Positions 17,008-63,825 are shown, numbered from the stretch's first letter. The stretch is 64,000 nucleotides of DNA from Gemmatimonadota bacterium (GCA_003222205.1 QHVC01000043.1:1944-65943); one strand, 5' to 3'. The notes: a model not told the origin generated them from the letters alone. Numbers and translations are program-made.

Positions 17008-17427
17008 TCAGGCCGCCACATGCTCGGCGGCCCACGCTTCGATGTACTTGACCAGATCCGCCGTCGGCGTGCCCGGCCCGAACAGCTTGCCGATGCCCTG
17101 CCCCTGGAGCGCCGCCATATCCTCCGGTGGGATGATCCCGCCGCCCGTGACGAGCACGTCGTCGCGCCCCGCCTGTGCGAGCAGCGCCCGGACGCGGGGG
17201 AACAGGGTCATGTGGGCGCCGGACAGGATCGAGAGCCCCACGACGTCGGCGTCCTCCTGAATCGCGGCCTGCGCGATCATCTCCGGCGTCTGGTGGAGGC
17301 CGGTGTAAATCACTTCCATTCCCGCGTCGCGCAGCGCGGCGGCGACGACCTTGGCGCCGCGATCATGTCCGTCCAGCCCGGGCTTCGCGACGAGGACCCG
17401 GATGGGCCGCTTGCGCGCCCGCGCCAT
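17008..17427 (-). CDS. Methylmalonyl-CoA mutase, cobalamin-binding small subunit
   Basis: 139 aa; ..[31 protein letters not shown].. contains the DxHxxG B12-binding motif. Confidence 0.92.
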
Positions 17428-18539
17428 CAGCGCCGGAACCTCAACAGGGCGGCCAGCCCGTCGACGGCGCGGCGGGCTTGGTCATCGTACAGCACGTCCA
17501 CCTGGGCCCGCTCCGCCAGCGCCTCCTCGACCGCATCGTCGATGCGCAGGTCGTCTGCCTGCCCGTCGGCGAGCAGCGTGCGGACCTGCCCGCGCCGCAA
17601 CGCTTTGAGCGTCGGCTCGACCCCGTTCACCGCCCAGCCCGTCCCCAGCCCGTCGCGAACGGATGCGCCGTGCGCGCGCTCCCACGCGCGCTCCCGCGCC
17701 TCGCGCAACGCCAGGGCAGCCTCCCGCACCTGCGGCGCGGAAGCGCTCTTCGGGTTGAGCTTGACGACTCCCAGGACCAGATCATGGAGATAGGTATGGA
17801 GGTGGGGCAGCACGGCGGCGGCATCGACCCCCACACCGGCCACGACGAGCCCCGCGAGCGGCCGCTGCGTGTGCAGCTGAAAAAGCTGATCCGCGACGGC
17901 GGCATAATGGCGGTGCTTCTCCTCGCGGATGCGCTGGTGATAGTTGTGCTCCCCCGAGCCCGCGCCCACTTGCCCGCCGCGGATGACCCGCCGCGCCCCG
18001 CGAAACTTGGAGGGTCGGGTCGCGAAGGCCGGGAGACCCGACAGCTCCGTTACCTCGTAGGCCGTCACGGCGAAAAAGCGCGCACTGCTGCGGTCGCAGA
18101 GGGCGACGACGATGGTGCCGAACTCCTCCTCGAGCGCGACCAGCTCACGAATGAGGGGCGTCGGGGTCACGGCGAGCCGCGACTTGTGCACATGCGGGAG
18201 CGGGAGCATGTCGAACAGACCCAGCTCCCCGCACGCGAACAAGGCAATGCCGCGCGCCGAGGGAAGCCGGCCCGGGTCGTCGAAGTAGCGGCGCACCCGT
18301 TCCAGATCCGCGGCGACCGCTTCCCGCTCCGGTCGCTCCAGGGGCAGCCGGGCAACCTCGGCGGCCGCCCGCTTGACCCGGTTCTTCATTTTGATGAGGT
18401 ACTTGCCGCGGGTCTTGTCGCGCGGCTCCAGCTTCAGGTAGCACGACACCACGCGAGCCGCGTCGAGGCTGATCCGCGACAGACGCGCGATCGCCGCGCG
18501 GATGGTGTCCTCCGTCGCGAGGGTGGGCAGGGCGGTCAT
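17427..18539 (-). CDS. eRF1-like protein (bacterial archaeo-eukaryotic release factor, baeRF-type) with intact GGQ
   Basis: 370 aa. The N-terminus has ..[12 protein letters not shown].. GGQ sits at residues 188-190 (nt 17970-17978), followed by HQRIREE..RHY. The C-terminal [23 protein letters not shown] resembles eRF1 domain 3. Assignment rests on motif recognition only. Confidence 0.55.
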
Positions 18540-18541
18540 GG

Positions 18542-20101
18542 CTAGAAGAACACCGGCTCGCGGTAGGCGCCCCAGACCCGCTCCAAGGCGTGGCGGATCT
18601 CGTACAGCGTGCAGTCGGCCCGGGCGCAGTCCAGCATCGCGGGGAGCACGTTCTCGTCGTGCTCAGCGGCGGCCCGCAGCGCCGCCAGCCGCCGCTCGAC
18701 GAGCCCCGCGTCGCGGCGCTGCCGCAGCTGCGCGAGGCGCTGGCGCTGGCTGGCTTCGGCGTCGTTGGAGATCTTGAGAATCTCCACGGGGTGATCGTCT
18801 GCCGTGACGTACTCGTTGACGCCCACGATGACGCGGTCGCCGGCCTCCGCCTGCCGTTGGAACTCCGCCGCCGACCGCGCGATCTGGCGTTGGAACCACC
18901 CGTTCTCGATCCCCTTCACCACACCGCCCCCCGATTGGATCTCCGCGAACAGCGCGTCGGCCTCTCGCTCGAGCTGGTCGGTCAGCGCCTCGACGTAGTA
19001 GGACCCGCCCAGCGGATCGACCACGTCGGCGACGCCGGTTTCGTGCGCGAGGATCTGCTGCGTCCGCAGCGCCACCTGGACGGCCTGCTCAGTCGGCAGC
19101 GCCAGGGTCTCATCCAAAGAATTGGTGTGCAGGGACTGCGTGCCGCCGAGGACCGCGGCGAGCGCTTGATAGGCGACCCGCACGATGTTGTTGTGCGGCT
19201 GCTGGGCGGTCAGGGTCACCCCGGCCGTCTGTGAATGGAAGCGCATCATCCACGACCGTGCATTCTTGGCCCCGTACTTCTCTCTCATGTGCCGCGCCCA
19301 GATGCGGCGCGCCGCGCGCAACTTCGCGATCTCCTCGAAAAAGTCGTTATGGATATCCCAGAAGAAAGACAGCCGCGGCGCGAAACTGTCCACGTCGAGG
19401 CCGCGCGCGATGCCGCGCTCGACGTACGTAAAGCCGTTCGCCAGCGTGAAGGCGAGCTCCTGGGCGGCCGTGGCGCCCGCCTCGCGGATATGGTAGCCGC
19501 TGATCGAGATCGTGTTCCACTGCGGCGTGTGCCGGGGACACCACTCGAACATGTCCACGATGACCTTGAGCGCCGGTTCGACGGGATAGACCCAGGCGTG
19601 CTGGGCCATGTACTCTTTGAGAATGTCGTTCTGGACGGTCCCCCGCAGTTTGGCGACGTCCACCCCCTGCCGCTCCGCCGCGACCACGTAGAAACAGAAG
19701 AGGATCGCCGCCGGTCCGTTGATGGTCATCGACGTCGAGACCTGATCGAGCGGAATGCCGCGAAACAGATCTTCCATGTCCACGGCGCTCGAGATCGCGA
19801 CGCCGCACTTGCCGACCTCGCCCTCGGCGCGGGCGTGGTCGGAGTCGTACCCCATCAGCGTCGGGAAGTCGAACGCCACCGAGAGCCCCGTCTGACCCCG
19901 CTCGAGCAGGAAGTGGTAGCGCTCGTTGGTATCCGCCGCGCTCCCGAAGCCCGAGAACTGCCGCATCGTCCACAGCCGCCCGCGGTGCATCGTCTGATGG
20001 ATGCCGCGGGTGAACGGATACCGGCCCGGCTCACCCAACCGCTCCGCCAGGTCTCCGGTCAGATCCTCGGGGGCATAGACCGGCTTTTTCTCGATGGTCA
20101 T
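18542..20101 (-). CDS. Methylmalonyl-CoA mutase, large (catalytic TIM-barrel) subunit
   Basis: ATG at 20101 overlaps the meaB stop (ATGA). ..YPFTRGI...[16 protein letters not shown].. and ..[15 protein letters not shown].. are diagnostic. Confidence 0.93.
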
Positions 20102-23565: not shown

Positions 23566-24020
23566 CGCCCGCCCGCGGTGAGCCGGCGCACATAGCGCTC
23601 CTGCCGCCGCCACATGGTCGAGCGCGTCCGCCCCCGCCCCTCCGGGTGGTCGTAGCCGAGGACGTGGAGCGTGCCGTGAACCATGAGACGGATCAGTTCG
23701 CTGCGGAGGTCGTCGGTGGTCGGTGTGCCGTTGTCGGTCGTCGTCAGCCAACCCTCGGCCACAGTGGGGCAAATGCAGACCTCCCCGACGATCGAGCCGT
23801 CGGGCTGCGGCAGGGCGAATGCCATGACGTCGGTCAGCCCACGCCGGCCGGTGGCGCGGCGGTTCAGGCGCTGCATCGCGGGCGCCCCGAGCAGGGTCAG
23901 CTCCACGCGCACGTCCCGCGCGCCCTCCCAGGCGAGCACTCGACGCGCCACGCGCAGCAACGTGCGCTCAGAGACCCGACGCCTGCGGGGCCGGCTGCCA
24001 GTCCTTGCTGATGCCGCCAC
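23562..24020 (-). CDS. ybeY: Endoribonuclease YbeY (rRNA maturation)
   Basis: ..TDVMAF.. and the zinc motif HGTLHVLGYDH are present. The start is uncertain: ATG at 24020 overlaps pgpH by 53 nt, while TTG at 23960 lies 7 nt after the pgpH stop. Confidence 0.85.
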   Translation of the reverse strand: MAASARTGSRPRRRRVSERTLLRVARRVLAWEGARDVRVELTLLGAPAMQRLNRRATGRRGLTDVMAFALPQPDGSIVGEVCICPTVAEGWLTTTDNGTPTTDDLRSELIRLMVHGTLHVLGYDHPEGRGRTRSTMWRRQERYVRRLTAGGR

Positions 24021-26172
24021 TGGACTCGGGGTAGTCGATGCGGTTGTGGTACATGCCGGACAGGACGCGGATGAATTCCGCCTTCACCACGTCGATCTGC
24101 TGCAACGTGAGCGGCGCCTCATCGAGCTGGCCGGAGCTGAGCTTGGTTCGTACGATGTGATTGATCGCTTCCTCGATCTTCTGGGGTGTGAGATCCTCGA
24201 GCACGCGCAGCGCGGCCTCGACCGAATCGGCCAGCATCGCGACGGCGGTCTCGACCGAGCGCGGCCGCGGACCGGGGTAGCGATAGTCTTCCCGGCGCGC
24301 GGCCCCGTCACCCTGCTTCTTGGCGCGGTCGTAGAAATAGGTGATCTCGCTGGTGCCATGATGCTCCGGGATGAACGCGGCCACGACCGCGGGGAGGCCT
24401 CCCTCCTCGGCAAGGGCGAGCCCGTCGGTCACGTGGCGCTTGATGATCTCCGCCGACTGCGCCGGCGCAATCTTGTCATGCGGGTTGCCGCCGCGCGTCT
24501 GGTTTTCGACGAAATACAGCGGGTTGCTGAGTTTCCCGACGTCGTGGTAGTAGCAGCCCACGCGGCCCAGCAGGCCGTTCGCCCCGATACGGTTGCACGC
24601 CGATTCGACGAGGTTCGCCATCGCCACGCTGTGGGCGTACGTCCCCGGCGCCTCGAGCGACAGGCGTCGCAGTAGCGGTCGGCTCGGATCGGACAGCTCG
24701 AGCAGGGTCAGGTCCGTCGTGACGTGGGTGAACGCCTCCGCGAGCGGGAGCAGCAGGATCGTGAGCGCGCCGCTCACCAGCCCGTTGGCAATCCCGAACA
24801 CCGAGGTCCAGCCGATCTCCCCGATGCGCCAACTGCCGGCGAGCCCCAGCGCGATGGCGCCCGCGAGGTACCCCGCTCCGACGATCAGCACGGCCGTGTA
24901 GAGATGGCTGCGCCGCCGCAGCGAGCGCACCGACAGCGCGGCGGTGACGCCGCCCAGCAGGCACAGAAACAGCGCCGGGCTATCGTGAAACACCGGCTGG
25001 GTGCCGATCACCGCCGAGACGATCATCGCCCCGATCATCGAGACCCGGCCGTTGAACAGGACGGTGAGCATCATCGCCTGGAACGGCAGCGGGATCAGCT
25101 CGGGATGGCCGGGCCGCGTGTGGGCGACGGCGGCGGCGCCGAGCAGCGTCGCAGCGAACAACAGAGCGACGAGCGCCACTTGGCGCTGTTCGCGGTAGGT
25201 CTCGCGCCGGTAGAACACCATCAACACCCAGAACACGCCGAGCATCAACGCGTCGCGGAGCATCGGCCCCACGACGCCGCCGAACGACGTGCTCGTCGCG
25301 GCGCCGCGGCGCACCAGCTCGTTGTGCAGCGCCTGCAGCTTCTCGTGCGCGGGCCCCGAGATGATCTCTCCCGCCGAGGCAAGCCGGTCCCCCTGGCGCA
25401 CCACGTACTTGCTCGGGTCCACGCTGCCCATCAGCTCGCTGCGCCGCCGCCGCGTTTCCGCCTCGTTCGGCACGAGCGTCGCGCGGAAGAAGCGCCGCAC
25501 GAGCTTCAGGTACACCACGTCGCCCACGCTCGACCCCGGATCGGGGTGCACCGCCCGCGAGCGCAGCAGGTACTCGTTGTAGCTCAGCACCTGGTCGCGA
25601 GCGACGGGCTGCTCCGAAGCCCCGCGCCGCACGATCAGCTGAGTCGAAGTCTCGGCCTGCAGCACCCCCGACCCGGTCACGCCCTGGGCCAGGGTCTGCG
25701 CGAACAGGTCGGTGAGCGCGCGCTCGAGGTTGCGGCGCTTGCCGCCCTTCTGGAGGTAGCCGGCTTCGGCGAGCGACAGGGGGAGACCGGCGCGGCGCCC
25801 CACGCGGATGATGGCCTGCGGCCCCTGGCCGACGGAGTCGCTGAGCGTCTGGAAGAACGCGTGCAGCTCGGCCGTCGTGCTGTCGTAGACCCGCTGCTGA
25901 AACTGATAGAGCGGCTTGGCGCTGGCGGCGAGATCCTCCGCCTCGCGCGCCAGCTCCTCGTCGGTCTTGGTCACGACGAAGTCGAACGGCGCGACGACGT
26001 CGCGCCCGGCCTTCGCTCCCGGCTCGAGCAGCGGCCCGAGGTCGGTGGCGCTCGAGGGGAACGCCAGATACGCGAGCACCGCGAGGCCGACCACCCACGC
26101 CCAGCGCGTCCCGTGGTAGCGCACTTCGTCCCAGCTCGGTCGTCTCATCTCAGCCTTGAGCATCCTCGGCAT
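23968..26172 (-). CDS. pgpH: 7TM-receptor HD-domain phosphohydrolase (PgpH/YqfF-like)
   Basis: Extracellular N-domain, 7 TM helices, then an HD domain (..YAHSVAMANL..YYHDVGK..). An alternative ATG at 26148 lies 1 nt after the phoH stop. Confidence 0.85.
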   Translation of the reverse strand: MPRMLKAEMRRPSWDEVRYHGTRWAWVVGLAVLAYLAFPSSATDLGPLLEPGAKAGRDVVAPFDFVVTKTDEELAREAEDLAASAKPLYQFQQRVYDSTTAELHAFFQTLSDSVGQGPQAIIRVGRRAGLPLSLAEAGYLQKGGKRRNLERALTDLFAQTLAQGVTGSGVLQAETSTQLIVRRGASEQPVARDQVLSYNEYLLRSRAVHPDPGSSVGDVVYLKLVRRFFRATLVPNEAETRRRRSELMGSVDPSKYVVRQGDRLASAGEIISGPAHEKLQALHNELVRRGAATSTSFGGVVGPMLRDALMLGVFWVLMVFYRRETYREQRQVALVALLFAATLLGAAAVAHTRPGHPELIPLPFQAMMLTVLFNGRVSMIGAMIVSAVIGTQPVFHDSPALFLCLLGGVTAALSVRSLRRRSHLYTAVLIVGAGYLAGAIALGLAGSWRIGEIGWTSVFGIANGLVSGALTILLLPLAEAFTHVTTDLTLLELSDPSRPLLRRLSLEAPGTYAHSVAMANLVESACNRIGANGLLGRVGCYYHDVGKLSNPLYFVENQTRGGNPHDKIAPAQSAEIIKRHVTDGLALAEEGGLPAVVAAFIPEHHGTSEITYFYDRAKKQGDGAARREDYRYPGPRPRSVETAVAMLADSVEAALRVLEDLTPQKIEEAINHIVRTKLSSGQLDEAPLTLQQIDVVKAEFIRVLSGMYHNRIDYPESSGGISKDWQPAPQASGL

Positions 26173-27109
26173 ACGCGCGGATGATGTCCCGCACCAGCCG
26201 GTGACGGACCACGTCCGTTTCCGTGAGATAGCAGAAGCCGATGCCGTCGATGCCTGGGAGGATCCGCTCGATCTGGAGCAATCCCGAGTCCTCGCGGTTG
26301 GCCAGATCGATTTGCGTCTTGTCGCCCGTGATCACGGCCCGCGAGTTCACGCCGAGCCGCGTCAGGAACATCTTCATCTGCATCCCTGTCGCGTTCTGCG
26401 CTTCATCGAGAATCACGAACGCGTCGGCCAGCGTCCGGCCACGCATGTACGCGAGTGGAGCGATCTCGATGGTGCGCGATTCGATCGCCTTCTGCACACG
26501 GTCGCGCGGCATCATGTCCTCGAGCGCGTCATACAGCGGCCGCAGGTATGGGTCCACCTTCTCGTGCAGGTCGCCGGGGAGAAAGCCCAGGCTCTCCCCC
26601 GCCTCGACGGCCGGCCGCGCGAGCACGATGCGCCGTACCCGCTTGCGCGCCAGCGCGTCGACCGCCGCCGCCACCGCGAGATACGTCTTCCCCGTGCCCG
26701 CCGGCCCAATCCCGACGACGATGTCGTTCTGCGTGATGAGCTGCAGGTAATCCCGCTGCCCCGCGCTCTTGGGGCCGATGACGCGCCGCAGGCCGGGGAG
26801 GATGATCTTCAGCTCCTGCTGCGCCGCCTCGCCGCTCAGCGTGCTGCTCGAGCCCTCGAGCGCGAGGCGCTCTACGTCATGGATATCCAGCTCCTCGCCC
26901 ATGCGCGCCAGGTCCACCATCGCCTGCGCCACCGGCGAGGCGCGCTCGACGGCCGCCGCCGGTCCCTGCAGCGTGAGGCTGTCCCCCCGGAGCGACACGC
27001 GCACCCCCATCCGCTTCGTCAGCTCGATGAGGTTGGCGTCGTTCACGCCGGCGAGCGCCAGCGGATCCACCCCCTCGACCGTCAGGCGCTGGGTGACGTC
27101 GTCGCTCAT
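26150..27109 (-). CDS. phoH: PhoH-like ATPase
   Basis: ATG at 27109 overlaps the aspS stop (ATGA). Walker A GPAGTGKTYLA is present, plus ..ILDEAQN.. and ..VITGD.TQIDL.. Confidence 0.92.
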   Translation of the reverse strand: MSDDVTQRLTVEGVDPLALAGVNDANLIELTKRMGVRVSLRGDSLTLQGPAAAVERASPVAQAMVDLARMGEELDIHDVERLALEGSSSTLSGEAAQQELKIILPGLRRVIGPKSAGQRDYLQLITQNDIVVGIGPAGTGKTYLAVAAAVDALARKRVRRIVLARPAVEAGESLGFLPGDLHEKVDPYLRPLYDALEDMMPRDRVQKAIESRTIEIAPLAYMRGRTLADAFVILDEAQNATGMQMKMFLTRLGVNSRAVITGDKTQIDLANREDSGLLQIERILPGIDGIGFCYLTETDVVRHRLVRDIIRAYAEDAQG

Positions 27110-33099: not shown

Positions 33100-33921
33100 C
33101 TACTTCTGGAAGGAATGCTCCGGGTCGGGATACTTCCCCTCCCGCACCTCCGCCGCGAACCCCTGCACCGCCTGCTTCACGTCGTCGGCGAGATGCGCGT
33201 AGCGTTTGACGAATTTCGCGGAGAAGCGGTCGTTCAAGCCCAGGAGATCGTGAAGCACGAGCACCTGCCCGTCGCAGTCCTTCCCCGCGCCGATGCCGAT
33301 CGTGGGAATCGCGAGCGAGTTGGTGATCTCGGCGGCGAGCGGCGTGGGCACCAGCTCCAGGACGACGGCGAACGCGCCGGCATCCTCGAGCGCCCTGGCG
33401 TCGTCCTTCAGACGCTGGGCGGTCTTGTCGTCCCGCCCCTGCACGCGGTAGCCCCCCAGCGCGTGCACCGACTGCGGGGTGAGCCCGATGTGCCCCATCA
33501 CCGGAATCCCGACGTCCACGACGGCGCGCACCGTGTCCGCAATCGGCCGGCCGCCTTCCACCTTGATGGCGTGGCACCCGGTCTCGGCCATGACGCGCCC
33601 ACCGTTGCGGATCGCCTCTTCCTTCGTGACCTGGTAGGTGAGATACGGCATGTCGCACACCACCATCGCCCGCTGCGCGCCACGTCGCACGATCTTGGTG
33701 TGGTAGATCATCTGATCGAGTGTCGCCGAGAGGGTGGACTCGGCGCCGGCGAGCACCTGATTCACCGAGTCGCCGACGAGCAGGACGTCCACGCCGCTCG
33801 CGTCGAGCAGGCGCGCGAACAGGGCGTCGTAGCACGTGAGCATCACGATGCGCTCGCGCTTCTCCTTCATCTGCAGGAGGGCGTGGACGGTGACCGGCTT
33901 TGGGGCGGGGGCCTCAGGCAC
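33100..33921 (-). CDS. panB: 3-methyl-2-oxobutanoate hydroxymethyltransferase
   Basis: 273 aa; ..IVMLTCYDA..A.LLD..GVDVLLVGDS.., ..IKVEGG.., ..GHIGLTPQS.. are present. Confidence 0.93.
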   Translation of the reverse strand: MPEAPAPKPVTVHALLQMKEKRERIVMLTCYDALFARLLDASGVDVLLVGDSVNQVLAGAESTLSATLDQMIYHTKIVRRGAQRAMVVCDMPYLTYQVTKEEAIRNGGRVMAETGCHAIKVEGGRPIADTVRAVVDVGIPVMGHIGLTPQSVHALGGYRVQGRDDKTAQRLKDDARALEDAGAFAVVLELVPTPLAAEITNSLAIPTIGIGAGKDCDGQVLVLHDLLGLNDRFSAKFVKRYAHLADDVKQAVQGFAAEVREGKYPDPEHSFQK

Positions 33922-34348
33922 GGGCGGGACTCAACGCCTCCAGCTCCGCCACCTCGCGGCGCCAGAAGTCGCGGTTAGGCAGCTCGGGGTGGGGAACGGT
34001 GAGCCCGGGCTCGGACACGACCCAGTCGCCGTAGCGCACGATGTCCAGGTCCAGCGTGCGGGGCCCCCAGCGCTCGCCGCGATCCCGGCCGCGCTCCCGC
34101 TCGAGCTCGAGCAGCCCGAGCAACAGCTCCCGCGGTGGAAGCGACGTCTCCAGCAACACCATCTGGTTGAGGAATCGTCCCTGTGGGACGGGGCCCAGCG
34201 CCGCCGTTTCCTCCACCTGGGAGGCGGCGACCAGCCGCGTGTCCGGCAGCGCGCCGAGGCGCTCGCGGGCGAACGCCAGGTGGGCTGCGCGGTCGCCGAC
34301 GTTCGATCCGAGGGCCACGTAGACCCGCTCGACGGGGGGGGAGGACAC
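33914..34348 (-). CDS. folK: 2-amino-4-hydroxy-6-hydroxymethyldihydropteridine diphosphokinase
   Basis: 144 aa; ..VYVALGSNVGDR.., ..RWGPRTLDLDIV.., ..L.VPHPEL..R.F are present. Confidence 0.9.
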   Translation of the reverse strand: MSSPPVERVYVALGSNVGDRAAHLAFARERLGALPDTRLVAASQVEETAALGPVPQGRFLNQMVLLETSLPPRELLLGLLELERERGRDRGERWGPRTLDLDIVRYGDWVVSEPGLTVPHPELPNRDFWRREVAELEALSPARA

Positions 34349-34365: not shown

Positions 34366-36450
34366 TCAGGGGACGCTGGCAAAGCCGCGCGTCAATTCGC
34401 GCAGCATTCCCGCCACTTGCTCGAGCTCGCGGGTCGCCTGCTCCAGCTCCGCGAGGCCGCGCGCCGCTTCGCTCGCCCGCGTCGCCACGCCGTCGGCCTC
34501 GCCGCGGTTCTTGCCCGCGATCTCGGCCACCGCGTTGATGCGCTGGCGCAGCCGCGCGAACGCTTCGTCCTGCTCCCCCGCCGCCGAGGCGATCCGCTGC
34601 GCGTGCGTCGTCGCATCCGCCGTCGCCGCCACGATCGCGTCCAGCGCCTCCAGCGCGCCCGCCGACAACTCCTCGACACCTCCCACGTTCACCTGCCCGC
34701 GTCGCATCTGCTCGACGACCTCGCCCACCTGGCGATGGATGTCCTGCACCAGCTCGCCCGCCTCGAGCGCGGCCGTGGCGCTCTGCTCGGCCAAGCGCCG
34801 GACCTCCTCGGCCACCACGGCGAACCCCTTGCCGTGCTTGCCCGCCCGCGCCGCCTCGATGGCGGCGTTCAGGGCCAGCAGGTTCGTCATGTCGGCGAGC
34901 TCGCGGATGGAAGCGATGAATCCCGTGATCCGCCGACTCACCTGCCCGAGCTGCTGCACCTTCGACGAGCTCTCCCCCACGAACCCCTTCAGCGCCACCA
35001 ACCGCTCGATGGCGTCGCGGATTTGCTGGCGGTTCTTGCCCGCGACCTCGCTCGCCGCGCTGGAGGCGCGCGCCGCTTCCGCGCCGTCGTTCGATACCCG
35101 CCGCGCCACCTGGGACAGCGTTTCCGTCGCCGCGAGCCCTCCGGACACCTCGCCTTCTTCGGCCACGACGCCGCCGCGGATCACCTCGGTCGACGCGGCC
35201 ACGGCCTTCGCCGCTTCCCGCAGCGCCACCGCCGCATGGGTCAGCGTCTGCAGCTGCTGCGTCACGCGCTCCACGGTCTCGACCAGCGGGCGCCGCAACT
35301 CGGTGATGTGGATCGCGGTGGCGAGCTGGTTGGCGAACGTGGTGATCGTGAGCACGTCCTTGCGGCGGTACGCCTTGCGCTTGTGATGCTCGAGCTCCAA
35401 GGTCCCGATCACCAGGTCGCCGAACTTGAGGGGGACGATGACCAGACTCTGCACTTCGAGCGGGGCGTCGGCGACGCGCTGGTCGCGGGTCACATCGTCG
35501 ATCACCACAGTCTCCCCCGCGCGCACCGCGGCGTCGCGCAGCTCCACCGTATCGGAAGAGGGGTCGCTCCGGACCTCACGCCCGATGGCGCTGCGATACG
35601 CCAGCGCGAGCCCGCCGTCCTGGCGCCGATAAATGCGGAAGTCCCCCCAGTCCACCAGGCGGTTGGCGAGCCGCTCGATGCGGCGGAACGAGTCCTCGAG
35701 GCTCAGGTTGCTCGTGATCACCGCGTCCATTGCGTGGATCTTGTTGAGCTCCTCGGCCGACACTGCTTCCTCCAGCATCATCTTGAGGAGCAGGCCCAGC
35801 CCCACGAGGACGGGCGCCACGAACACCCATACGAGCGGCTGCTCGCGAAACCCGACGATCGTGCCGACCACGGCTGCCGCCCCGATCAGGGTGGCGAAGT
35901 AGGCGAGCATCTCGTACCGCAGGATCAGCATGCGCTCGCCCACCTCGAGCTTGCTGCGCACCAGCAGACTCAGGTAAAACAGCGTCCGGGAGATGAGGAA
36001 GTAGGTGAGTGCTATGGCGAACAGGGGCAGGATGATCGCGCTGTGTGGCTCCGGCGGGATCTCCGCGGCTTCCAGCACGAACGCGTACACGCCGTACGCC
36101 GCGACCAGCGCGATCACTTCCCGGCCGAGATTGATCCAGGCGACCCGCAGCGGCTTGCGGTGCCACGTCCAGTCGACGATCAGCGTGCCCCCCGCGACCG
36201 CGGTGGCGGTCGCGGGGAGTCCCACGAGCAGGCTCCCCGCGAGTGCGACGAGGCCGGTCTGCGTGAGATAGGAGTACTTGCTCAAGGGGATGTGGAGGCC
36301 GCGCAGGGCGACGCAGGCGCCGAGCAGGACGATGATCTCCGGGATCTGGTGCAGCCAGCGCGGGTCCGCCGCCAACACCGCAGCGAGCAGCACGAGTCCC
36401 GTGTAGGCAAGACCCTGGCTGTAGAGCACGACGAACCGCTGGATCGTCAC
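34366..36450 (-). CDS. Polytopic-membrane / GAF / methyl-accepting-chemotaxis signalling-domain protein
   Basis: GTG at 36450 overlaps the trpA stop (GTGA). About 6 N-terminal TM helices are followed by a GAF-like region (..VIDDV..D.R.....[23 protein letters not shown]..). The canonical MCP hairpin tip [39 protein letters not shown] follows. No HAMP or periplasmic domain is seen. Confidence 0.8.
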
Positions 36451-37247
36451 GACCGCTGCTCCGCTGCCGACCGCACCGCCGTGACGAGCTCGGCGAGCAA
36501 CCGCTCGGCCGAGGCGAGGCCGCCGTTGCCGAGCGCTTCGACCAGCGCGCTCCCCACGATCACGCCGTCCGCCACTCTCGCCGCGGCTGCCGCTTGCGCG
36601 GCCGAGCCGATCCCGAATCCGATGGCGACGGGCAGCGGCGTCGCCGCCTTCACCCGCGCTACCTGGCGCTCCAAATCGGGCGGCACCTGCTCGCGCACAC
36701 CTGTCACGCCGAGGCGGGAGATGAGATAGATGAAGCCGGTGGCGCCGCGCACTGCCTCGGCGAGCCGACTGTCGGGCGTCGTGGGAGCGATGAGGCGGAT
36801 CAGCGCCAACCCACCGGCCGCCGCCCGCCGCTCCAGCGCCGGGTCGGCGCCCGCCGGCAGGTCGGTCAGGAGCAGCCCCGACGCGCCGGCGGCCTGCGCG
36901 GCGGCCACGAAGCGCTCCACGCCGAAGGCTAGCACCGGGTTCAGATAGGTCATGATCACGACGGGGACGTCGAGGCGCGCTTCGCGCACGAGGTCCAGGA
37001 CTCCGGCCACGGTCATCCCCTGGTCGAGCGCGGCCTGCGTGGAGCGCTGGATGGTGGGTCCGTCGGCGAGGGGATCGCTGAACGGCACGCCGACCTCGAG
37101 GAAGTCGGCGCCCGCCCGCTCGGCGAGGCGTAACGCGTCCCGACAGGCCGCGGGGCTGGGGTAGCCGGCGGTAACGTACGGCATCAGGGCCGCGCGCCGC
37201 TCGGCGCGCACGGCCCGCCAGCGGGCGGCGATCGGGTGGTCAGACAA
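36447..37247 (-). CDS. trpA: Tryptophan synthase alpha chain
   Basis: ..[10 protein letters not shown]......... and ..[22 protein letters not shown].. are present. The TTG start at 37247 overlaps the HD-GYP gene stop by 8 nt (TTGTCTGA). Confidence 0.9.
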
Positions 37248-38715
37248 AGTAGTCGCTGACCTGGATGCCGTACTTCGCCGGATCGCTGACCTTGATGATG
37301 GACCGGGGGAACTTGCCCTGTTCATCGCGATGCGCGAGGTCGACGACGGTCCCCGGGTGCTGGAGCGCGCCGTCGGGCGAGGCCACGATTCGCACCACCG
37401 GCCGGTGCACCCCGGAGACGTCGGCATTGGCGGCCTGGACCAGCGCCACCTCGAAGGTGTCGAGGATGACGCAGGTGCCCACCGGATAGATGCCGATGAG
37501 ATTGATGAACGCCTTGACGACCACCGGGTCGTACCCGCGGCGCGGGTTCTCCCACATCTCCTTCAGCACCTGGTCGGGCTGAATCGGCACCGTCTGGTAG
37601 ACGCGGCGGCTGGTCGCCGCGTCGAATCCATCCGCGACGGCGACGACTTTGGAATAGATCGACAGCTCCCGGGACCGGACCGACTTCGGGTACCCCGTCA
37701 GGTCGGTCTTCATGTGATGCTCGTAGGCGACGATCATGCCCCGGTAGGGGATCTCGCCGTACCCCCGCAGCCCGAAGAGCGTGAGTACCCCGAGCCAGGG
37801 GTGCGCCTGCATGATGCGCCATTCCTCGTCGCTCAGTCCGCCCTGCTTGTTCAGCACTTCCAGCGGCACCCGCGACTTGCCCACGTCGTGAAACAGAGCG
37901 GCGATCCCCAGATCGTAGAGCTGCAGCTTCGTGAGGCCGAGTTTGCGGCCCAGAGCGACGGAGAAGATGCAGACGTTCACCGAATGCGTGAAGGTGTACT
38001 CGTCGTAGTCGCGTAGGGTGGTGAGGCCCATGAGCGACGATTCGTTGTTCAGCACCTGGTCCACAATCGCCTGCACGGCCCGCTTGACCTTCTTGACGTT
38101 GGCCGTGCGGCCCAGCCGGATGCTGTTGATGACCTCCTTGGTCACCGCCACCGAGCGCGCGTAGGTGCGCTTCGCGGCCTCCTTCAAGCGCTCGACTTCC
38201 TCGACGTCCTCCTCGGTCTCGAGCGGGGGCTCGACCGAGATCAAGGAGACCCCGCCGTCCTGGAGCTTCTGCGCCAACTCGAAGACTTTGTTGGGGTTCG
38301 CTTCCTTGGCTGAGTACGACAGCAGCAGCGAGACGAAGATCTGGAGTTGCTTGCGGTCCACACCCTCATCCATGCGCACCGCGCCGACGCCGCACTGGCG
38401 CAGCACGCCGAGGATGTGCGAGAACGAGGCGTAGTTGTCGAGGTCGAGCCGCAGGCGCGTGGAGTTGACGAAGATGAACTCGCCCTGCAGCCGCAACTCC
38501 AGTTCGCGCTCGACCTCGAGCAGGTGCTTCGTGGCACTGGCGAGATCGTCGAGGGCGCGCTGCACCTGCGCGTTCTCGATGGGATACAGCTTCAGCGAGC
38601 GCAGCGCCGTGTACAGGAAGATCAGGAACTCGCGGCCCGCGAGCCGCAAGAACCCGTCGGTCGTCGCGACGGTTTCGACGATGGAGGCCCGGCGCGACGC
38701 CTGGGGATCGCTCAC
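37240..38715 (-). CDS. HD-GYP domain protein (putative c-di-GMP phosphodiesterase) with an uncharacterised N-terminal domain
   Basis: GTG at 38715 overlaps the HEAT gene stop (GTGA). ..THSVNVCIFS.., ..LFHDVGK.. and ..YEHHMKTDLTGYP.. form the HD ... HHxxxDxxGYP signature, which is slightly divergent here. Confidence 0.85.
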   Translation of the reverse strand: MSDPQASRRASIVETVATTDGFLRLAGREFLIFLYTALRSLKLYPIENAQVQRALDDLASATKHLLEVERELELRLQGEFIFVNSTRLRLDLDNYASFSHILGVLRQCGVGAVRMDEGVDRKQLQIFVSLLLSYSAKEANPNKVFELAQKLQDGGVSLISVEPPLETEEDVEEVERLKEAAKRTYARSVAVTKEVINSIRLGRTANVKKVKRAVQAIVDQVLNNESSLMGLTTLRDYDEYTFTHSVNVCIFSVALGRKLGLTKLQLYDLGIAALFHDVGKSRVPLEVLNKQGGLSDEEWRIMQAHPWLGVLTLFGLRGYGEIPYRGMIVAYEHHMKTDLTGYPKSVRSRELSIYSKVVAVADGFDAATSRRVYQTVPIQPDQVLKEMWENPRRGYDPVVVKAFINLIGIYPVGTCVILDTFEVALVQAANADVSGVHRPVVRIVASPDGALQHPGTVVDLAHRDEQGKFPRSIIKVSDPAKYGIQVSDYFV

Positions 38716-40310
38716 CCGCCGACCTCCCGCAGCGCCCGGCTCACCGCGTTGCGCACCAGCGCTTCCTTATCTTGGGCCGCGCGCTCCAGGACGGCGCGGG
38801 CGTCCGGGTGCCGGATCTTGCCCAGCGCCATCGCCGCGCAGGCGCGGGTTTCGGGATCTTCCTTTTTGGCGAGCATCCCCTTGGGCACCAGCATCTTTTC
38901 CAGCAGTGGCACGGCTGCCGCCCCCGCCAGCGTGCCGTAGGCCTCGAAGAACGCCATCTTTTCGGTCAGGTCGCTGCCTTTGAGCTTGCTCCCCGTGACC
39001 GCGCCCTCGATGCGCGCGAACGCATTCCGATAGCCGCGCGCCGCCAGGACCTTGACCGCGGAGATACGCACGTCGCGCTCCGGGTCCGCGACCGCCGTCT
39101 CCAGCAACCGCAGCGCCGCTGGGCTCCCGATGGCGGTCAACGCCTCGACCACCGCGACTTTGAGCTCCCGGTCGCCGGTTTCCAGCAGCTTGCCCATGCC
39201 CTCCGGCGCGCCGGGCAGCTTCAGGCGCGCCGCCAGCCGCACCATCTCGAGCTGCGACGCGCTGTCGTCGCTTGCCAGTGCCTTCAACACCTCGCCCGCG
39301 TGCGCCTGCGCCAGCCGCTCCGCGGCTTTGTGCACGAGCTCTTTGACGCGCGCGTTGGTGAGCTTCGGCAGCCAGCTCATCAGCGTGACGAGGGCATCGG
39401 ACCGCAGCTCCTGAAACAGCTCGCTCAGCTCCTCCTCGGAGGGGTGGACGGCCGCCTCATCGAGCGACTGCAACAGCTGCGACAGCGCCTCCGGCTGCGA
39501 CAAGCGCGCCGGCAAGGCTTCGAGCGCCTGGCGGTGCTCGGGGATGACCTCCCGGGCCCGCTCCAGCACGTTGCGGCTCTCGCGCAGGACATACGCGACC
39601 GAACGGAAATCACCGGCGCCGAGGAGGTAGGGGATGAAGTTCTCGACGATGGAAATCAGCTCCGCGCGGACCGTGCCGTAGGTCTGCAGCTCCAGCAGGT
39701 CGAACAGCATCGCCAGCACGTTGCGGCGCAGGTCCTGCTGATACTCGCGCTCCACCTCCTTGTGGAGGTAGTCGATTTCCTTGTCGTCCAGGAAATAAAG
39801 CGTGGTGTCGAAGTCTTCGACCGAGACCACGCCCTCTCGCTTCGGCGGCGCCTCTTCCTGCACGTGCTGGCGCACGTCGTTGGGGCTGATCGACGGGATC
39901 GTCTCGCCGGCTTCGATCGGCACCGCATTGTCGCTCGCCAGCTCGCGGAAGGTGTAGTTCAGGAACTGGAAGTCTTCCTGCCACAGCAGGGTCAGGAGGT
40001 CGTCGGCGGCTTCGGCCTGCAGGCTGCGCGACTGTTGCAGCACGCGCAGAAACTTGACGATCTCTTCTTCCTCGACGCCCGGCTTCATCGCCAGCGAGCG
40101 CACCCCGTCTTTGTACAGTGTCCAGGCAACGCTCTCGTTTTTCTGATCGTTGGCGTAGACGATGTGCTCTTCCCAGCGCAGCGACGTTTCCAGCACGTCG
40201 AACACGAGGTCGCCGGTGGCCTGCCAGATCTGGCGGAGGGCGCTCCGGATGTTCTCCACCGCGCGCTGGTAGACCGGGTTGTTCGGCAGGTACAGCTGGG
40301 TCGCCCGCAT
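38712..40310 (-). CDS. HEAT-repeat protein
   Basis: C-terminal HEAT/PBS-lyase-like repeats are present (..DRELKVAVVEALTAIGSPAAL.LL..AVADPERDVRISAVKVLAA.., ..ACAAMALGKIRHPDARAVLERAAQDKEALVRNAVSRAL). The first canonical start is ATG at 40310. High-GC3 coding signal continues upstream to the trpB stop at 40385-40387. Confidence 0.7.
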   Translation of the reverse strand: MRATQLYLPNNPVYQRAVENIRSALRQIWQATGDLVFDVLETSLRWEEHIVYANDQKNESVAWTLYKDGVRSLAMKPGVEEEEIVKFLRVLQQSRSLQAEAADDLLTLLWQEDFQFLNYTFRELASDNAVPIEAGETIPSISPNDVRQHVQEEAPPKREGVVSVEDFDTTLYFLDDKEIDYLHKEVEREYQQDLRRNVLAMLFDLLELQTYGTVRAELISIVENFIPYLLGAGDFRSVAYVLRESRNVLERAREVIPEHRQALEALPARLSQPEALSQLLQSLDEAAVHPSEEELSELFQELRSDALVTLMSWLPKLTNARVKELVHKAAERLAQAHAGEVLKALASDDSASQLEMVRLAARLKLPGAPEGMGKLLETGDRELKVAVVEALTAIGSPAALRLLETAVADPERDVRISAVKVLAARGYRNAFARIEGAVTGSKLKGSDLTEKMAFFEAYGTLAGAAAVPLLEKMLVPKGMLAKKEDPETRACAAMALGKIRHPDARAVLERAAQDKEALVRNAVSRALREVGG

Positions 40311-40384
40311 CCCCTTGCCGAGGAGCGACCACAGCTCCTCGACCTGCGACGGCGGCAGGGCCAGCTCGGGGATTGGCGCGTTGC

Positions 40385-41575
40385 TCAGGTCCGGACTCCC
40401 GTGAGGTCCGCGACCAGGGCGACGTCTTTGTCGCCCCGCCCGCTGAGATTGATGAGGACCACGTCCCCGGCGGACCACCGCCCGGGGTGCGCCAGGACCC
40501 AGGCCACCGCATGGGCGCTTTCCAGCGCGGGCAGGATGCCCTCCAGCCGGCTGAGCCCCGCGAAGGCGTCCAGGGCCTGGCGGTCGGTCACGGCTTCATA
40601 CAATACCCGACCGGCGTCCTTGAGGTAAGCATGTTCGGGCCCGACCCCGGGATAGTCCAGACCCGCGGAGACCGAATGCGCCGGTTGCACTTGTCCGTCC
40701 TCGTCTTGGAGCAGGTAGCTCAAGCTGCCGTGGAAGACGCCCGGCCGCCCACGGGCCAGCGACGCCGCGTGCCGCCCTTCCAGCCCTTCGCCCGCTGCCT
40801 CCACGCCCACGAGCTCCACCTCCCGGTCGCCAAGAAACGCGGTGAAGATCCCGAGTGCGTTGGACCCGCCGCCGACGCACGCCACGACCGTGCGCGGCAG
40901 CCGTCCGAACCGTTGCAGCACCTGCTCCCGCGCTTCGCGCCCGATCACCGCCTGGAAGTCCCGCACGATGCGCGGGAACGGGTCCGGCCCCACGACGGAG
41001 CCGATGATGTAGTGCGTGGTCGTGACGTTGGTGACCCAGTCGCGCAGGGCTTCGTTGGTCGCGTCCTTCAACGTGCGCGTGCCGCTGGACACCGGGACCA
41101 CTCGCGCCCCCATCAGCTCCATGCGGTACACGTTGAGCCGCTGGCGGCGCATGTCCTCCTCGCCCATGTACACCACGCAATCGAGACCGAAGCGCGCACA
41201 CACGGTCGCCGTCGCCACGCCGTGCTGGCCCGCGCCCGTTTCCGCGATGATGCGGCGCTTCCCCATGCGTCGCGCGAGCAGCGCCTGGCCGAGCGTGTTG
41301 TTGATCTTGTGGGCCCCGGTGTGGTTCAGATCTTCGCGCTTCAAGACGACTCGGACCCCCGCCCCGACCTGCGCTGAGAGCCGCGGCACGTCGCTGAGCG
41401 GCGTCGGCCGGCCGACGTAGTCTTTGAGCAGCGCCTCCAGCTCCGCCGCGAACGCAGGGTCCGCCGTCGCCGCCTCGTAGACGCGGGCCAGCTCGTCCAA
41501 CGCCGCCATCAGCGTTTCCGGCACGTAGCGGCCGCCGTAGGGGCCGAACCGGCCGAGGTCCGTCGTCACCGTCAC
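40385..41575 (-). CDS. trpB: Tryptophan synthase beta chain
   Basis: ..[15 protein letters not shown].. and ..[14 protein letters not shown].. (PLP lysine) are present. GTG at 41575 overlaps the trpC stop (GTGA); ATG at 41599 is the alternative start. Confidence 0.92.
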
Positions 41576-42363
41576 CGCCCCCGCCTCGGCACGCCGCATA
41601 ATGCCCGTACCGCCCCTTCGGGATCCGCGAGGCGCGCAACCGAGGTGCCGACCAGCACCAGATCGGCCCCGCATCCTGCGAGCCGTTCGACGTCGGCCAC
41701 GGTTTCAATGCCGCTCTCGCCTACCGCCGTCACCCCGGTCGGCACGAGCGGCAGCAGTCGCTCCGCCACGCGCAGGTCGACGGCGAGTGTGTCGAGATCG
41801 CGGCTGTTGACGCCGACGGCCGTCGGCGCGGCGGCGAGCGCCCCTTCCAGCTCCGACTCGGAGTGCGCTTCGATCAATGTGCCGAGACCGAGGCCCTTCG
41901 CTTCCCGCGCGAGGGCCCGCAGCCGGTCGGGGGCGAGCGCGCGGACGATGAGCAGCACGCCGCTCGCGCCGGCGGCCCGCGCTTCGAACAGCTGCAGTAC
42001 GTCGACGATGAAATCCTTGCACAACACCGGCACCGGCACCGCTCGCGCCACACGTTCCAGGTCTTCCACCGCGCCGCCGAAGTGCCGCTCGTCGGTCAAC
42101 ACCGAAACCGCCGCGGCACCGCCGCGCACATACGCCCGGGCGTGCCCGACCGGGTCCAAATTCTCCCGGATCGCTCCCGCCGACGGCGAGCGGCGTTTCA
42201 CCTCGGCGATCAGTCCGACGGTCGCGCCGCGGAACGCCGACTCGAGCACGGGCCCGGGCGGGGCCGCCGCCGCCGCGCGCTCCAGCTGGCGCGCCTTGGG
42301 CCGCAGCGCCGCGACGCGTTCGCGCGTTGCTTCGAGGATGCCGGCAAGGGTGGGGTTGGTCAC
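41572..42363 (-). CDS. trpC: Indole-3-glycerol phosphate synthase
   Basis: ..[14 protein letters not shown].., ..AVSVLTD...F.G.., ..LCKDFI.., ..IEAH.. and ..VGVNSRDL.. are present. GTG at 42363 was chosen; ATG at 42420 would abut the lexA start. Confidence 0.9.
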
Positions 42364-42370
42364 GCTTGCG

Positions 42371-42412
42371 TTCGGTCCGTCTTCGGGTAGATTATATTCG
42401 GTTTCCTTTCGG
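42371..42412. promoter_or_regulatory. Four direct TTCGG repeats in the trpC/lexA divergent region (candidate operator)
   Basis: TTCGG occurs at 42371, 42382, 42397 and 42408, giving spacings of 11, 15 and 11 nt. An AT-rich TAGATTATATT block lies between the two pairs, 8-49 nt upstream of the lexA ATG. Confidence 0.3.
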
Positions 42413-42419
42413 GGGCCCA

Positions 42420-43028
42420 ATGCCGCTCACGCGTCGCCAGCGCGAAATCCTCGATTACCTCACGGGCTACATCACCGACCACGGGTACGCTCCCAGTTTC
42501 GAGGAAATCGCCCGCCAATTCGCCTTCGCCTCGCTCGCGACGGTCCACGAGCACCTGACCAACCTCGAGCGCAAAGGGTACATCCGCCGCAACCACAACG
42601 AGAGCCGCGCGATCGAGATCGTGCCGCCCAAAGGCCAGACGGGGGCCACCGAGCTCCCGCTGCTCGGCCTCGTCGCCGCCGGCCAGCCGATCGAAGCCGT
42701 GACCGGGGACGACACCATCGCCGTCCCCGACGAACTGCTGCCGCGGCGTGGCCGCAGCTACGTGCTCCGCGTCCGGGGCAATTCGATGGTCGACGAGCAC
42801 ATCCAGGACGGCGATTTCGTCGTGGTCCAGGAGCGCAACCAGGCGGACAACGGACAGACGGTGATCGCCCTCGTGGACGGCTCGAGCGCCACCGTCAAGA
42901 AGTTCTACCGCGAGCCCGGCGGCTGGATCAGGCTGCAACCGGCGAATCCCGAGATGGCTCCCCTGCGCCTCAACGAGCGCGACGTGATCGTCCAGGGAGT
43001 CGTCGTCGGCGTCATCCGGAAGTACTAG
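42420..43028 (+). CDS. lexA: LexA repressor
   Basis: MPLTRRQREILDYL.......GYAPSFEEIA is the winged-helix N-domain. The cleavage site VAAGQP and the S24 peptidase motifs ..RVRGNSM.. and ..ATVKKF.. are present. Confidence 0.93.
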   Translation: MPLTRRQREILDYLTGYITDHGYAPSFEEIARQFAFASLATVHEHLTNLERKGYIRRNHNESRAIEIVPPKGQTGATELPLLGLVAAGQPIEAVTGDDTIAVPDELLPRRGRSYVLRVRGNSMVDEHIQDGDFVVVQERNQADNGQTVIALVDGSSATVKKFYREPGGWIRLQPANPEMAPLRLNERDVIVQGVVVGVIRKY

Positions 43029-44067
43029 GGCTCGCTCGCCGGAGGCGCTGCAGCGCCTCCCCGGCGGCGCCGGACTCCACCGCGTCGCGCGCCCGCGCGA
43101 TTCCTTCCTCGTAGCTAGCCGCCAGGCCGGCGACGTACACCGCCGCGCCGGCATTGAGCAGCACGGCGGCCAGACCGGGCGCGTCGCCCCGCTCCCGCTC
43201 CAGGAGGCGGCGCAGTCGGGCGGCGTTGGCCGATGGGTCCCCGCCCCGTAACGCGGCCGCGTCATCCACCGCCAGGTGGTGCGCTCCCGGATCCAGCTGC
43301 CAAGGGCGGACCTCGTCCCCGCGAACCTCCCAGACGTCGGTCACGCCGATCGGCGAGATCTCGTCCATGCCGACCCGCCCGTGCACGACGAGCGCGTGCT
43401 CGGTTCCGAGACGCGCGAGGGCAGCGGCGAGCAGTGGCGCGCGGTCGCGGTCGGCAACGCCGACGACCTGACGCGTGGCACCCGCCGGATTGGCGAGCGG
43501 GCCCAGGAGGTTCATGATCGAGGGGGTCCCAAGCTCGCGCCGTACCGGCCCCACGTGCCGCATCGCGGGGTGAAAGTTCGGCGCGAACAGGAAGGCCACG
43601 CGCGCCTCGCGCAATACCCGCGCGGCTCCCGCCGCGTCGAGGCCGATCCCGATTCCCAACGCTTCCAGCACGTCCGCCGAGCCGCATTGCGACGTGAACG
43701 AGCGGTTGCCGTGTTTGGCGACCGCGGCGCCCGCGCCGGCGGCGACGAAGGCCGCCCCGGTCGAGATATTGAACGTCCCGACCGCCCCACCGCCGGTCCC
43801 GCAGGTGTCCACGAGGTGAGCGCCGTCGGCGTCGACGCGGACCATCGCCGCGCGCAACGCCCGGGCCGCGCCCGCCACCTCGTCCGGCGTCTCCCCCTTG
43901 ACCCGCAGGCCGACGAGCAAGCCGGCGATCTGCGCGGGCGAAGCCTCGCCCCGCATCACGACCCCGAAGACGGCGGCGGCGAGCGATTCGCTGAGCGACT
44001 GCCGGTTGGCGAGGGCGACGAGGGCCTGCTGCAGGGGGGGTGCGGAGGGCGTCGCGGCGTCGGGCAT
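43012..44067 (-). CDS. trpD: Anthranilate phosphoribosyltransferase
   Basis: 351 aa; ..GLLVGLRVKGET..E.., ..VDTCGTGGG...FNIST.., ..KHGNRS.TS..GSADVLEALG.. are present. Confidence 0.92.
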   Translation of the reverse strand: MPDAATPSAPPLQQALVALANRQSLSESLAAAVFGVVMRGEASPAQIAGLLVGLRVKGETPDEVAGAARALRAAMVRVDADGAHLVDTCGTGGGAVGTFNISTGAAFVAAGAGAAVAKHGNRSFTSQCGSADVLEALGIGIGLDAAGAARVLREARVAFLFAPNFHPAMRHVGPVRRELGTPSIMNLLGPLANPAGATRQVVGVADRDRAPLLAAALARLGTEHALVVHGRVGMDEISPIGVTDVWEVRGDEVRPWQLDPGAHHLAVDDAAALRGGDPSANAARLRRLLERERGDAPGLAAVLLNAGAAVYVAGLAASYEEGIARARDAVESGAAGEALQRLRRASPSTSG

Positions 44068-63462: not shown

Positions 63463-63470
63463 GGGGGGAA

Positions 63471-63825
63471 TGGAGGCGCGGGGAATCGAACCCCGGTCCG
63501 AATCTGACTCCGATGCCGCTCCTACGTGCGTAGGCGACGCTTTTTGAGTCTCACTACCGTGGCGCCTCGCCGGCCCCGGCAGCAACAAGCCCTTTTACAA
63601 CTCTCGCGCAACCCGTTCGGGCCCCGGGTCACACCAGCCCGACTTTGCGATACGTGAGCGCCGCCTCAGGCGGGCTGCCACTCACGCAGGTGCGTAAGCC
63701 GAAGCTTACGCAGCCAGGGCCAACTCAGTGTTGGCAGTTAAAAAGTGCCAGTTGTTTTTCGAGGTGACTGACGACCTCGGCACGCAGCAACACCCTCATC
63801 AAACCCGTCGAAACCTGTCGCCCCC
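63471..63825 (-). ncRNA. ssrA: tmRNA (SsrA), tag peptide (A)ANTELALAA
   Basis: The minus strand starts GGGGGCGACAGGTTTCGACGGG and ends GGACCGGGGTTCGATTCCCCGCGCCTCCA. The 7-bp acceptor stem contains a G3-U pair. The tag reading frame GCC AAC ACT GAG TTG GCC CTG GCT GCG TAA lies at 63706-63735. CCA is not encoded. Confidence 0.93.

Follow-up and report, generated by a model that had tools for sequence, protein, structure and literature searches.

The tryptophan cluster of a soil Gemmatimonadota bacterium, placed in the Gemmatimonadales by the source names of near-identical proteins (GCA_003222205.1, QHVC01000043.1:1944-65943; 64,000 nucleotides with a G+C content of ~70%, referred to here as the window) carries two genes between trpB and trpA, one encoding a HEAT-repeat protein and the other an HD-GYP phosphodiesterase. 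These genes form an autonomous two-gene cassette, for which the trp genes and a gene for a methyl-accepting chemotaxis protein (MCP) downstream of trpA are optional neighbors. We lean towards reading the pair as a heteromeric cyclic di-GMP (c-di-GMP) phosphodiesterase that is carried in a housekeeping operon and whose position reflects expression hitch-hiking rather than the sensing of tryptophan or indole. HD-GYP proteins are a less understood class of c-di-GMP phosphodiesterases whose inputs are mostly unknown, and the Gemmatimonadota are an abundant and poorly studied soil phylum. The original prediction for this locus, made from the sequence alone, had grouped the HEAT, HD-GYP and MCP proteins into a single signaling module tied to tryptophan synthase.

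The autonomy of the pair is apparent from the range of its genomic contexts, which were reached through 50%-cluster representatives, cluster look-ups and the contigs encoding them, the distant neighborhoods being viewed at contig scale. An HMMER pass over 1.84 billion cluster representatives yielded 2,536 50%-cluster representatives with E < 1e-30 to the HD-GYP protein, and full-length homologs, containing both the N-terminal and the catalytic domain, extend down to ~30% identity. The homologs come from Gemmatimonadota, Aminicenantes, Nitrospirota, a deltaproteobacterial metagenome-assembled genome and candidate division WOR-3, and the HEAT partner was confirmed in at least three phyla. Two Gemmatimonadota loci (L087 and L088) keep the flanking order htrA-tal-truA-lexA ... 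LytR_C-rlmN-aspS-phoH-ybeY with the HEAT and HD-GYP genes in the same slot, and none of trpD, trpC, trpB, trpA, folB, folK, panB or panC is present at the locus. The pair also occurs at unrelated loci in another Gemmatimonadota genome (L092), in a metagenome contig (L091) and in candidate division WOR-3 (L094), while a further metagenome contig, from a cluster that includes an Aminicenantes member, holds two tandem HEAT/HD-GYP pairs with a 35-codon open reading frame (ORF) called between them (L089:6057-13018). In Nitrospirota (Nitrospirae RBG_16_64_22, L093:3086-7467), the HEAT gene is preceded, with a 4-nt overlap, by a GAF-GGDEF gene that has a GGEEF motif, and the HD-GYP gene comes next, an arrangement that would amount to a compact cyclase, scaffold and phosphodiesterase cluster. 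Since the HEAT partner in each of these contexts can be aligned with that of the window over its entire length (18-56% identity), the conserved unit is HEAT followed by HD-GYP. The link of the cassette to tryptophan looks positional rather than functional, because the cassette exists without trp genes in other lineages and phyla.

The two proteins of the cassette share more than a gene boundary. In the HEAT protein, an alpha/beta domain of ~135 aa at the N-terminus is connected through a helical linker to a HEAT solenoid at the C-terminus, and the HD-GYP protein consists of an N-terminal domain, the catalytic HD-GYP domain (~235-410) and a C-terminal beta-rich domain. A comparison of the two protein profiles with hhalign aligned 136 N-terminal columns with a probability of 97.4% and an E-value of 1.4e-11, and the order of secondary-structure elements in AlphaFold2 models is equal in both N-terminal domains; judged from this profile alignment, the first ~136 residues of the HEAT and HD-GYP proteins are homologous and constitute a shared domain. 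For the HD-GYP copy, the predicted local distance difference test score (pLDDT) across residues 20-160 is mostly 76-95, apart from a single block at 62. At E-values up to 10, Pfam contains no family matching either N-terminal domain, and Foldseek returned no match to the shared domain. A search of residues 1-230 of the HD-GYP protein against Pfam, again at E up to 10, gave no Response_reg match and hence no REC domain, and the score against DUF3391 is 16 bits, below the cut-off of 27.8, and covers profile positions 94-135 only. The HEAT solenoid is modeled as helical repeats over residues 230-558 (mean pLDDT of ~70-94 in 10-residue blocks), and its Foldseek matches, to alphaRep (TM-score up to 0.74 on the target) and to the A subunit of protein phosphatase 2A (PP2A), reflect a generic HEAT/ARM fold only. 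None of the HEAT, HD-GYP or MCP proteins matched the PADLOC anti-phage models. Because they share an N-terminal domain and are encoded by genes that nearly always overlap at stop and start codons, the HEAT and HD-GYP proteins may pair through their paralogous N-terminal domains to form a heteromeric complex. Two published accounts describe -4 overlaps as translationally coupled by termination-reinitiation and as often encoding the subunits of heteromeric complexes (PMC6728339, PMC10666635).

The catalytic motifs of the HD-GYP protein are, by alignment, intact. Across 30 diverse homologs the columns H250, H282, D283, H311, H339 and H340 (H, HD, H, HH) are invariant, and the GYP motif that follows HH, reading EHHMKTDLTGYP in the window, has G347, Y348 and P349 conserved in at least 90% of the same set. 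Sequence relatives in the PDB are 5z7c (the best, E 3e-23), 4mcw, 4r8z, 9rbz and 3tm8, and Foldseek matched the catalytic domain to 4mcw, 3tm8 and 9rbz; the closest solved relatives are active HD-GYP enzymes. The HD-GYP subunit would be expected to hydrolyze a cyclic dinucleotide, most likely c-di-GMP, with 3'3'-cGAMP as the alternative, and the HEAT solenoid may act as a regulatory, scaffolding or docking subunit. We favor c-di-GMP because of the GGDEF linkage in Nitrospirota. It seems unlikely that the protein is not a c-di-GMP hydrolase at all and instead degrades another cyclic dinucleotide, such as 3'3'-cGAMP, or serves as a nucleotide-binding receptor or adaptor. Such a role would suit the cGAMP specificity of V-cGAP3 (5z7c), the best PDB match, and a median identity among close relatives, 85%, at a level typical of proteins with many interaction surfaces; however, conservation extends to every metal-ligand motif column and to GYP, the Nitrospirota cyclase gene is directly linked to the pair, and PmGH, a c-di-GMP enzyme, scores essentially equal to 5z7c.

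Within the Gemmatimonadota, the cassette is stably placed in the tryptophan cluster. The order trpC, trpB, HEAT, HD-GYP, trpA and GAF-MCP, as originally described for the window, holds in gene content and coordinates when the genes are identified with Pfam and NCBIfam hidden Markov models (Table 1), and the two genes (3.1 kb) separating trpB from trpA break the canonical trpBA adjacency. We scanned GTDB with the HD-GYP protein as query and one genome per species; the best 80 loci all belong to the Gemmatimonadales (78-88% identity), and the order trpD-trpC-trpB-HEAT-HDGYP-trpA-MCP-panB, mapped by tblastn with the window proteins as queries, is found in all of them, flank permitting. Median identities over these loci are 85% for HD-GYP, 84% for trpB, 75% for HEAT, 72% for MCP, 68% for trpA and 64% for trpC, and the inserted HD-GYP phosphodiesterase is therefore as constrained as TrpB. 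The arrangement trpB-HEAT-HDGYP-trpA further occurs in four more distant Gemmatimonadota lineages, whose HD-GYP proteins are 70%, 59%, 57% and 48% identical to that of the window, and the top 120 matches of a profile search with distant homologs were all Gemmatimonadota. Conservation of the order in relatives, which had been proposed as a check on the locus, thus extends across the Gemmatimonadales and beyond. An old, self-contained cassette may have become fixed in the Gemmatimonadota trp cluster and been inherited vertically there.

Every junction in the chain from trpC to the MCP gene is an overlap, as read directly in the sequence. The three overlaps first reported, HEAT/HD-GYP (GTGA, 38715-38712), HD-GYP/trpA (TTGTCTGA, 8 nt, with the HD-GYP stop at 37242-37240 and the trpA TTG at 37247) and trpA/MCP (GTGA, 36450-36447), are present, and the general statement that all junctions are tight is borne out by trpC/trpB (GTGA, 41575-41572) and trpB/HEAT (CTGA, 40388-40385), which overlap as well. 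The recurrence of the same overlaps in 66-76 independent species-level genomes places the arrangement far outside what chance would give; here and below, counts per junction (of 66, 68, 69, 74 or 76 loci) refer to those of the best 80 loci in which that junction was readable. The HD-GYP gene starts with ATG in 41 loci, GTG in 31 and CTG in 2, and the MCP gene with GTG in 34 and ATG in 32, its A/GTGA overlap with trpA being present in 66 of 69.

The start of the HEAT gene departs from this pattern of start codons. The codon overlapping the trpB TGA is CTG in 61 of 68 loci and GTG in the other 7, and no canonical start is conserved at this junction: in about half of the loci the stretch from the preceding in-frame stop to the CTG is free of in-frame ATG, GTG and TTG codons, and the first canonical codon downstream varies in position from +15 to +153 nt. 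An SD-like (Shine-Dalgarno-like) GGAG, GGGAG or GGAGG precedes the CTG or GTG in 65 of 68 loci, the 30 codons past the CTG vary as coding sequence does (entropy 0.65, 0.34 and 1.02 at codon positions 1, 2 and 3), and in distant Gemmatimonadota the homologous start position reads ATGA or GTGA. From these patterns we are fairly confident that ribosomes which terminate on trpB reinitiate at the CTG to translate HEAT. The start is probably misannotated in databases, where the annotated lengths of this protein run from 539 to 582 aa, a spread to be expected if gene callers miss the true start. We considered and rejected a TrpB-HEAT fusion through programmed frameshifting at the CTGA, as the codon before the TGA varies (CTC, ATC, ACC, GCC and others) and no slippery motif is present. 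The CTG would set the level of HEAT translation, and probably hold the cassette below TrpB.

The opposite end of the insertion bears on the expression of tryptophan synthase itself. The trpA start is a TTG embedded in the HD-GYP frame in 76/76 loci, and an SD-like motif upstream of it was found in 0/76. The HD-GYP C-terminus, ...DYFV*, is nearly invariant at the DNA level (GACTACTTTGTCTGA; 37243-37260 in the window, and related loci of its family), as would be expected if the embedded trpA start places a second constraint on these bases. Translation of trpA may depend on ribosomes finishing HD-GYP, given the lack of an SD-like motif and the position of the trpA start within the HD-GYP frame, and it is here only that a weak form of the tryptophan coupling idea survives. 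The missing motif is nevertheless no proof of coupling, because trpC in the window genome likewise has none.

In its full form, the tryptophan idea holds that HEAT, HD-GYP and GAF-MCP are a signaling module tied to tryptophan synthase, one that senses indole, tryptophan or a pathway intermediate, or keeps a fixed stoichiometry with TrpAB. We consider this improbable. It would account for the persistence of trpB-HEAT-HDGYP-trpA from 88% down to 48% HD-GYP identity, for five consecutive overlaps in an unbroken coupling chain from trpC to MCP, and for a trpA TTG placed inside invariant HD-GYP codons such that TrpA synthesis may depend on HD-GYP translation. Against it stand the retention of the pair at the L087/L088 locus without trp genes, and its occurrence without nearby trp genes in another Gemmatimonadota genome and in other phyla, which together undercut the proposed tie to tryptophan synthase. 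The MCP gene is missing from several lineages with split trpBA, and unrelated insertions between trpB and trpA are already known from other bacteria (PMC2395257). Matched stoichiometry fares no better, given that a likely weak CTG start predicts unequal expression and argues against simple equal levels of the HEAT protein and TrpB, and no protein feature points to indole or tryptophan sensing. A stronger combination is also conceivable and seems very unlikely to us: the pair would be a widespread heteromeric phosphodiesterase with a new shared dimerization or sensor domain, and, in addition, TrpA would be obligatorily reinitiated after HD-GYP while a selected weak CTG gates the downstream chain, linking second-messenger turnover to the last tryptophan step by translation or by association with TrpAB.

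On the preferred reading, by which the cassette is carried as a passenger, the genes would be expressed from one long housekeeping transcription unit, trpC-trpB-(HEAT-HDGYP)-trpA-(GAF-MCP)-folK-panB-panC, with the cassette served by read-through transcription and termination-reinitiation at the overlaps of a constitutive biosynthetic operon. The original prediction had named internal promoters and terminators as a check. From trpC to the MCP stop, a consensus pattern scan, its promoter part uncalibrated for Gemmatimonadota, returned neither a terminator-like site on the coding strand nor, as far as the MCP 3' end, an internal sigma-70-like promoter. The only sigma-70-like match is weak and lies at the MCP/folK boundary just upstream of folK (34382-34355). 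The divergent spacer between lexA (ATG at 42420, plus strand) and trpC (GTG at 42363) measures 56 nt and holds a TATAAT, which the consensus scan missed because the -35 match is poor. As opposite-strand lexA divides trpD from trpC, the transcription unit most likely starts in this spacer, a start point suggested by the sequence. Rfam identified no leader or riboswitch near the trp genes.

Several points weigh against the passenger reading. The lineage of L087 may have trp genes elsewhere in its genome, its neighborhood being seen on a contig. The best PDB match of the HD-GYP protein is the 3'3'-cGAMP-specific enzyme mentioned above, essentially tied with PmGH, and the AlphaFold2 model of the HEAT N-terminal domain, built from a shallower alignment, is of low confidence. 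Internal promoters may be present in the unit, given the uncalibrated consensus. Selection may also act on the linkage itself, because the nested position is kept over deep divergence and the trpA start lies in the HD-GYP frame in every readable locus.

The third inserted gene, encoding the GAF-MCP, is a separate, dispensable and lineage-variable neighbor outside the conserved pair. Although it was found in every close locus with sufficient flank, it follows trpA in only one of the four distant lineages (L085, full-length MCP, 43% identical) and is absent from L081-L083, L087, L090 and every non-Gemmatimonadota context with the pair. Because several lineages keep trpB-HEAT-HDGYP-trpA without the MCP gene, the three inserted genes are not one module as had been proposed; the pair is the part that is fixed across phyla. 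The protein shares the MCPsignal domain and the canonical hairpin-tip sequence, within a signaling hairpin of ~310 aa, with transmembrane MCPs. It differs from classical class I MCPs in its closely spaced hydrophobic N-terminal segments, in its cytoplasmic GAF input and in the lack of che genes nearby: Pfam identifies GAF and MCPsignal only, with no HAMP or periplasmic ligand-binding domain. The earlier description of its topology was correct in these absences and in the GAF domain, and needs amending from six transmembrane segments to ~7 hydrophobic segments, which span residues 7-224 and leave no large periplasmic loop. Likewise as described, the window contains no cheA, cheW or response-regulator gene, none of ~48 window ORFs having a corresponding Pfam match. 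In known MCPs the hairpin tip binds CheA and CheW, and the GAF-MCP may be a separate chemoreceptor that presumably signals to CheA/CheW encoded elsewhere. The idea that the pair and the GAF-MCP constitute an unconventional chemosensory output, in which the receptor controls HD-GYP through the HEAT scaffold and replaces or adds to CheA/CheW, draws on the overlap of the MCP gene with trpA in nearly all close loci, on its co-conservation with the pair in the window's family and L085, and on the lack of che genes in the window. We judge it highly improbable, as the receptor has the canonical tip and the gene is missing from so many of the contexts in which the pair occurs.

Compared with known systems, the HD-GYP protein shares its catalytic domain (HD, HH, GYP), and likely its chemistry, with RpfG, PmGH (4mcw), PA4781 (4r8z), Bd1817 (3tm8), V-cGAP3 (5z7c) and DvhD (9rbz). 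Unlike these enzymes, it has no REC, PAS or GAF input and carries instead an unclassified N-terminal alpha/beta domain of ~135-230 aa, which, in contrast to stand-alone or REC-linked HD-GYP enzymes, it shares with an obligately adjacent HEAT protein. In our literature search, no HD-GYP enzyme was described as having a dedicated HEAT partner or a shared N-terminal domain. The HEAT solenoid is alike in fold to the PP2A A subunit, and a scaffolding or regulatory role beside a phosphoesterase would be analogous. Its likeness to PBS-lyase-type HEAT proteins such as NblB and CpcE is generic to the repeat only (the NCBIfam model for NblB scores the window HEAT protein at 38 bits against a cut-off of 300), and, unlike PP2A-A, NblB and CpcE, it carries an additional domain at its N-terminus that is homologous to the one in the partner enzyme. 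A split trpBA is not new in kind, as trpB and trpA are reported to be separated by foreign genes in one Sargasso Sea contig and in certain species of Flavobacterium and Burkholderia (PMC2395257). In contrast to those inserts, the one in the window is a defined signaling cassette joined to both neighbors by overlapping codons, has been kept throughout a phylum-level radiation, and has the trpA start inside its last codons. A literature search on trp organization in Gemmatimonadota found nothing specific.

If the preferred reading of the pair as a heteromeric phosphodiesterase is true, a multi-phylum HD-GYP and HEAT unit with an unclassified shared domain would establish a new type of architecture in the regulation of cyclic-dinucleotide turnover, and the Gemmatimonadota would gain a core signaling component. 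The locus would also illustrate, in a clean natural setting, a translational-coupling chain of five junctions with a conserved CTG start that is probably misannotated by gene callers. For tryptophan biology it serves as a caution, in that a tight and conserved insertion within trpBA need not imply a functional link.

Table 1. Features of the trp cluster and its immediate flanks, in window coordinates
Feature	Coordinates	Strand	Basis and remarks
trpD	43012-44067	-	Not contiguous with the trpC-led unit
lexA	42420..43028	+	ORF translation MPLTRRQREILDYL...; ATG at 42420
TATAAT hexamer, candidate -10 box	42391..42396	-	Read in sequence; within the lexA-trpC divergent spacer; putative promoter role
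trpC, indole-3-glycerol-phosphate synthase, first in chain	41572..42363	-	Pfam IGPS, E 1.2e-68; GTG start at 42363 set from Pfam alignment and sequence
trpB, tryptophan synthase beta, canonical TrpB1	40385..41575	-	TIGR00263, 604 bits (cut-off 392.45)
HEAT-repeat protein, 558 aa	38712..40388	-	HEAT_2, 73.2 bits, 3 stretches; probable CTG start
HD-GYP phosphodiesterase, 491 aa	37240..38715	-	HD_5, 70.5 bits (cut-off 27.2); Pfam HD also matched
trpA, tryptophan synthase alpha, TTG start	36447..37247	-	TIGR00262, 227.8 bits (cut-off 102.35)
Polytopic GAF-MCP, 694 aa, GTG start	34366..36450	-	GAF at 251-381; MCPsignal at 492-644, 111 bits (cut-off 34.6)
folK (HPPK), next downstream after a 17-nt spacer	33914..34348	-	Pfam HPPK

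The same-strand array continues past folK with panB (Pfam Pantoate_transf) and panC, and the catalytic Glu/Asp motif of TrpA is present in its translation. A 958-codon open frame on the minus strand (34366-37239), which extends the MCP frame across the whole of trpA as far as the HD-GYP stop, was dismissed as a high-GC off-frame artifact and represents no longer gene. Opposite-strand lexA splits trpD from trpC, which breaks the canonical trpC-trpD contiguity, and its 3' end overlaps that of trpD convergently by 17 nt; the gene at this position has LexA_DNA_bind and Peptidase_S24 Pfam matches in related loci, and its placement between trpD and trpC is kept in the Gemmatimonadota loci L081, L083, L085, L087 and L090. 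No trpF, trpE or trpG lies in the window; trpF stands between trpC and trpB in L081, L085 and L090, and is not there in the window or in L083, where trpC directly overlaps trpB. A conserved GAF protein of 431-436 aa overlaps trpD from upstream in several Gemmatimonadota loci (L081:2632-3942, L085:2520-3815 and L090:302-1612) and is not at that position in the window; it was considered as a relative of the TM-GAF (transmembrane-GAF) part of the MCP, and the comparison showed no relationship. Elsewhere in the window, an ORF at 17427-18662 (minus strand), between carboxyltransferase and methylmalonyl-CoA mutase genes, has release-factor-like domains of baeRF families 10 and 3. A transfer-messenger RNA (tmRNA) gene at 63468-63825 (minus strand; RF00023, 159.6 bits, full length) is the only Rfam match of the window. 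A second HD-family candidate for nucleotide signaling lies in the same conserved neighborhood, a PgpH-type 7TM receptor with an intracellular HD hydrolase (7TMR-HDED, 7TM-7TMR_HD and HD) at 23968-26331 on the minus strand.

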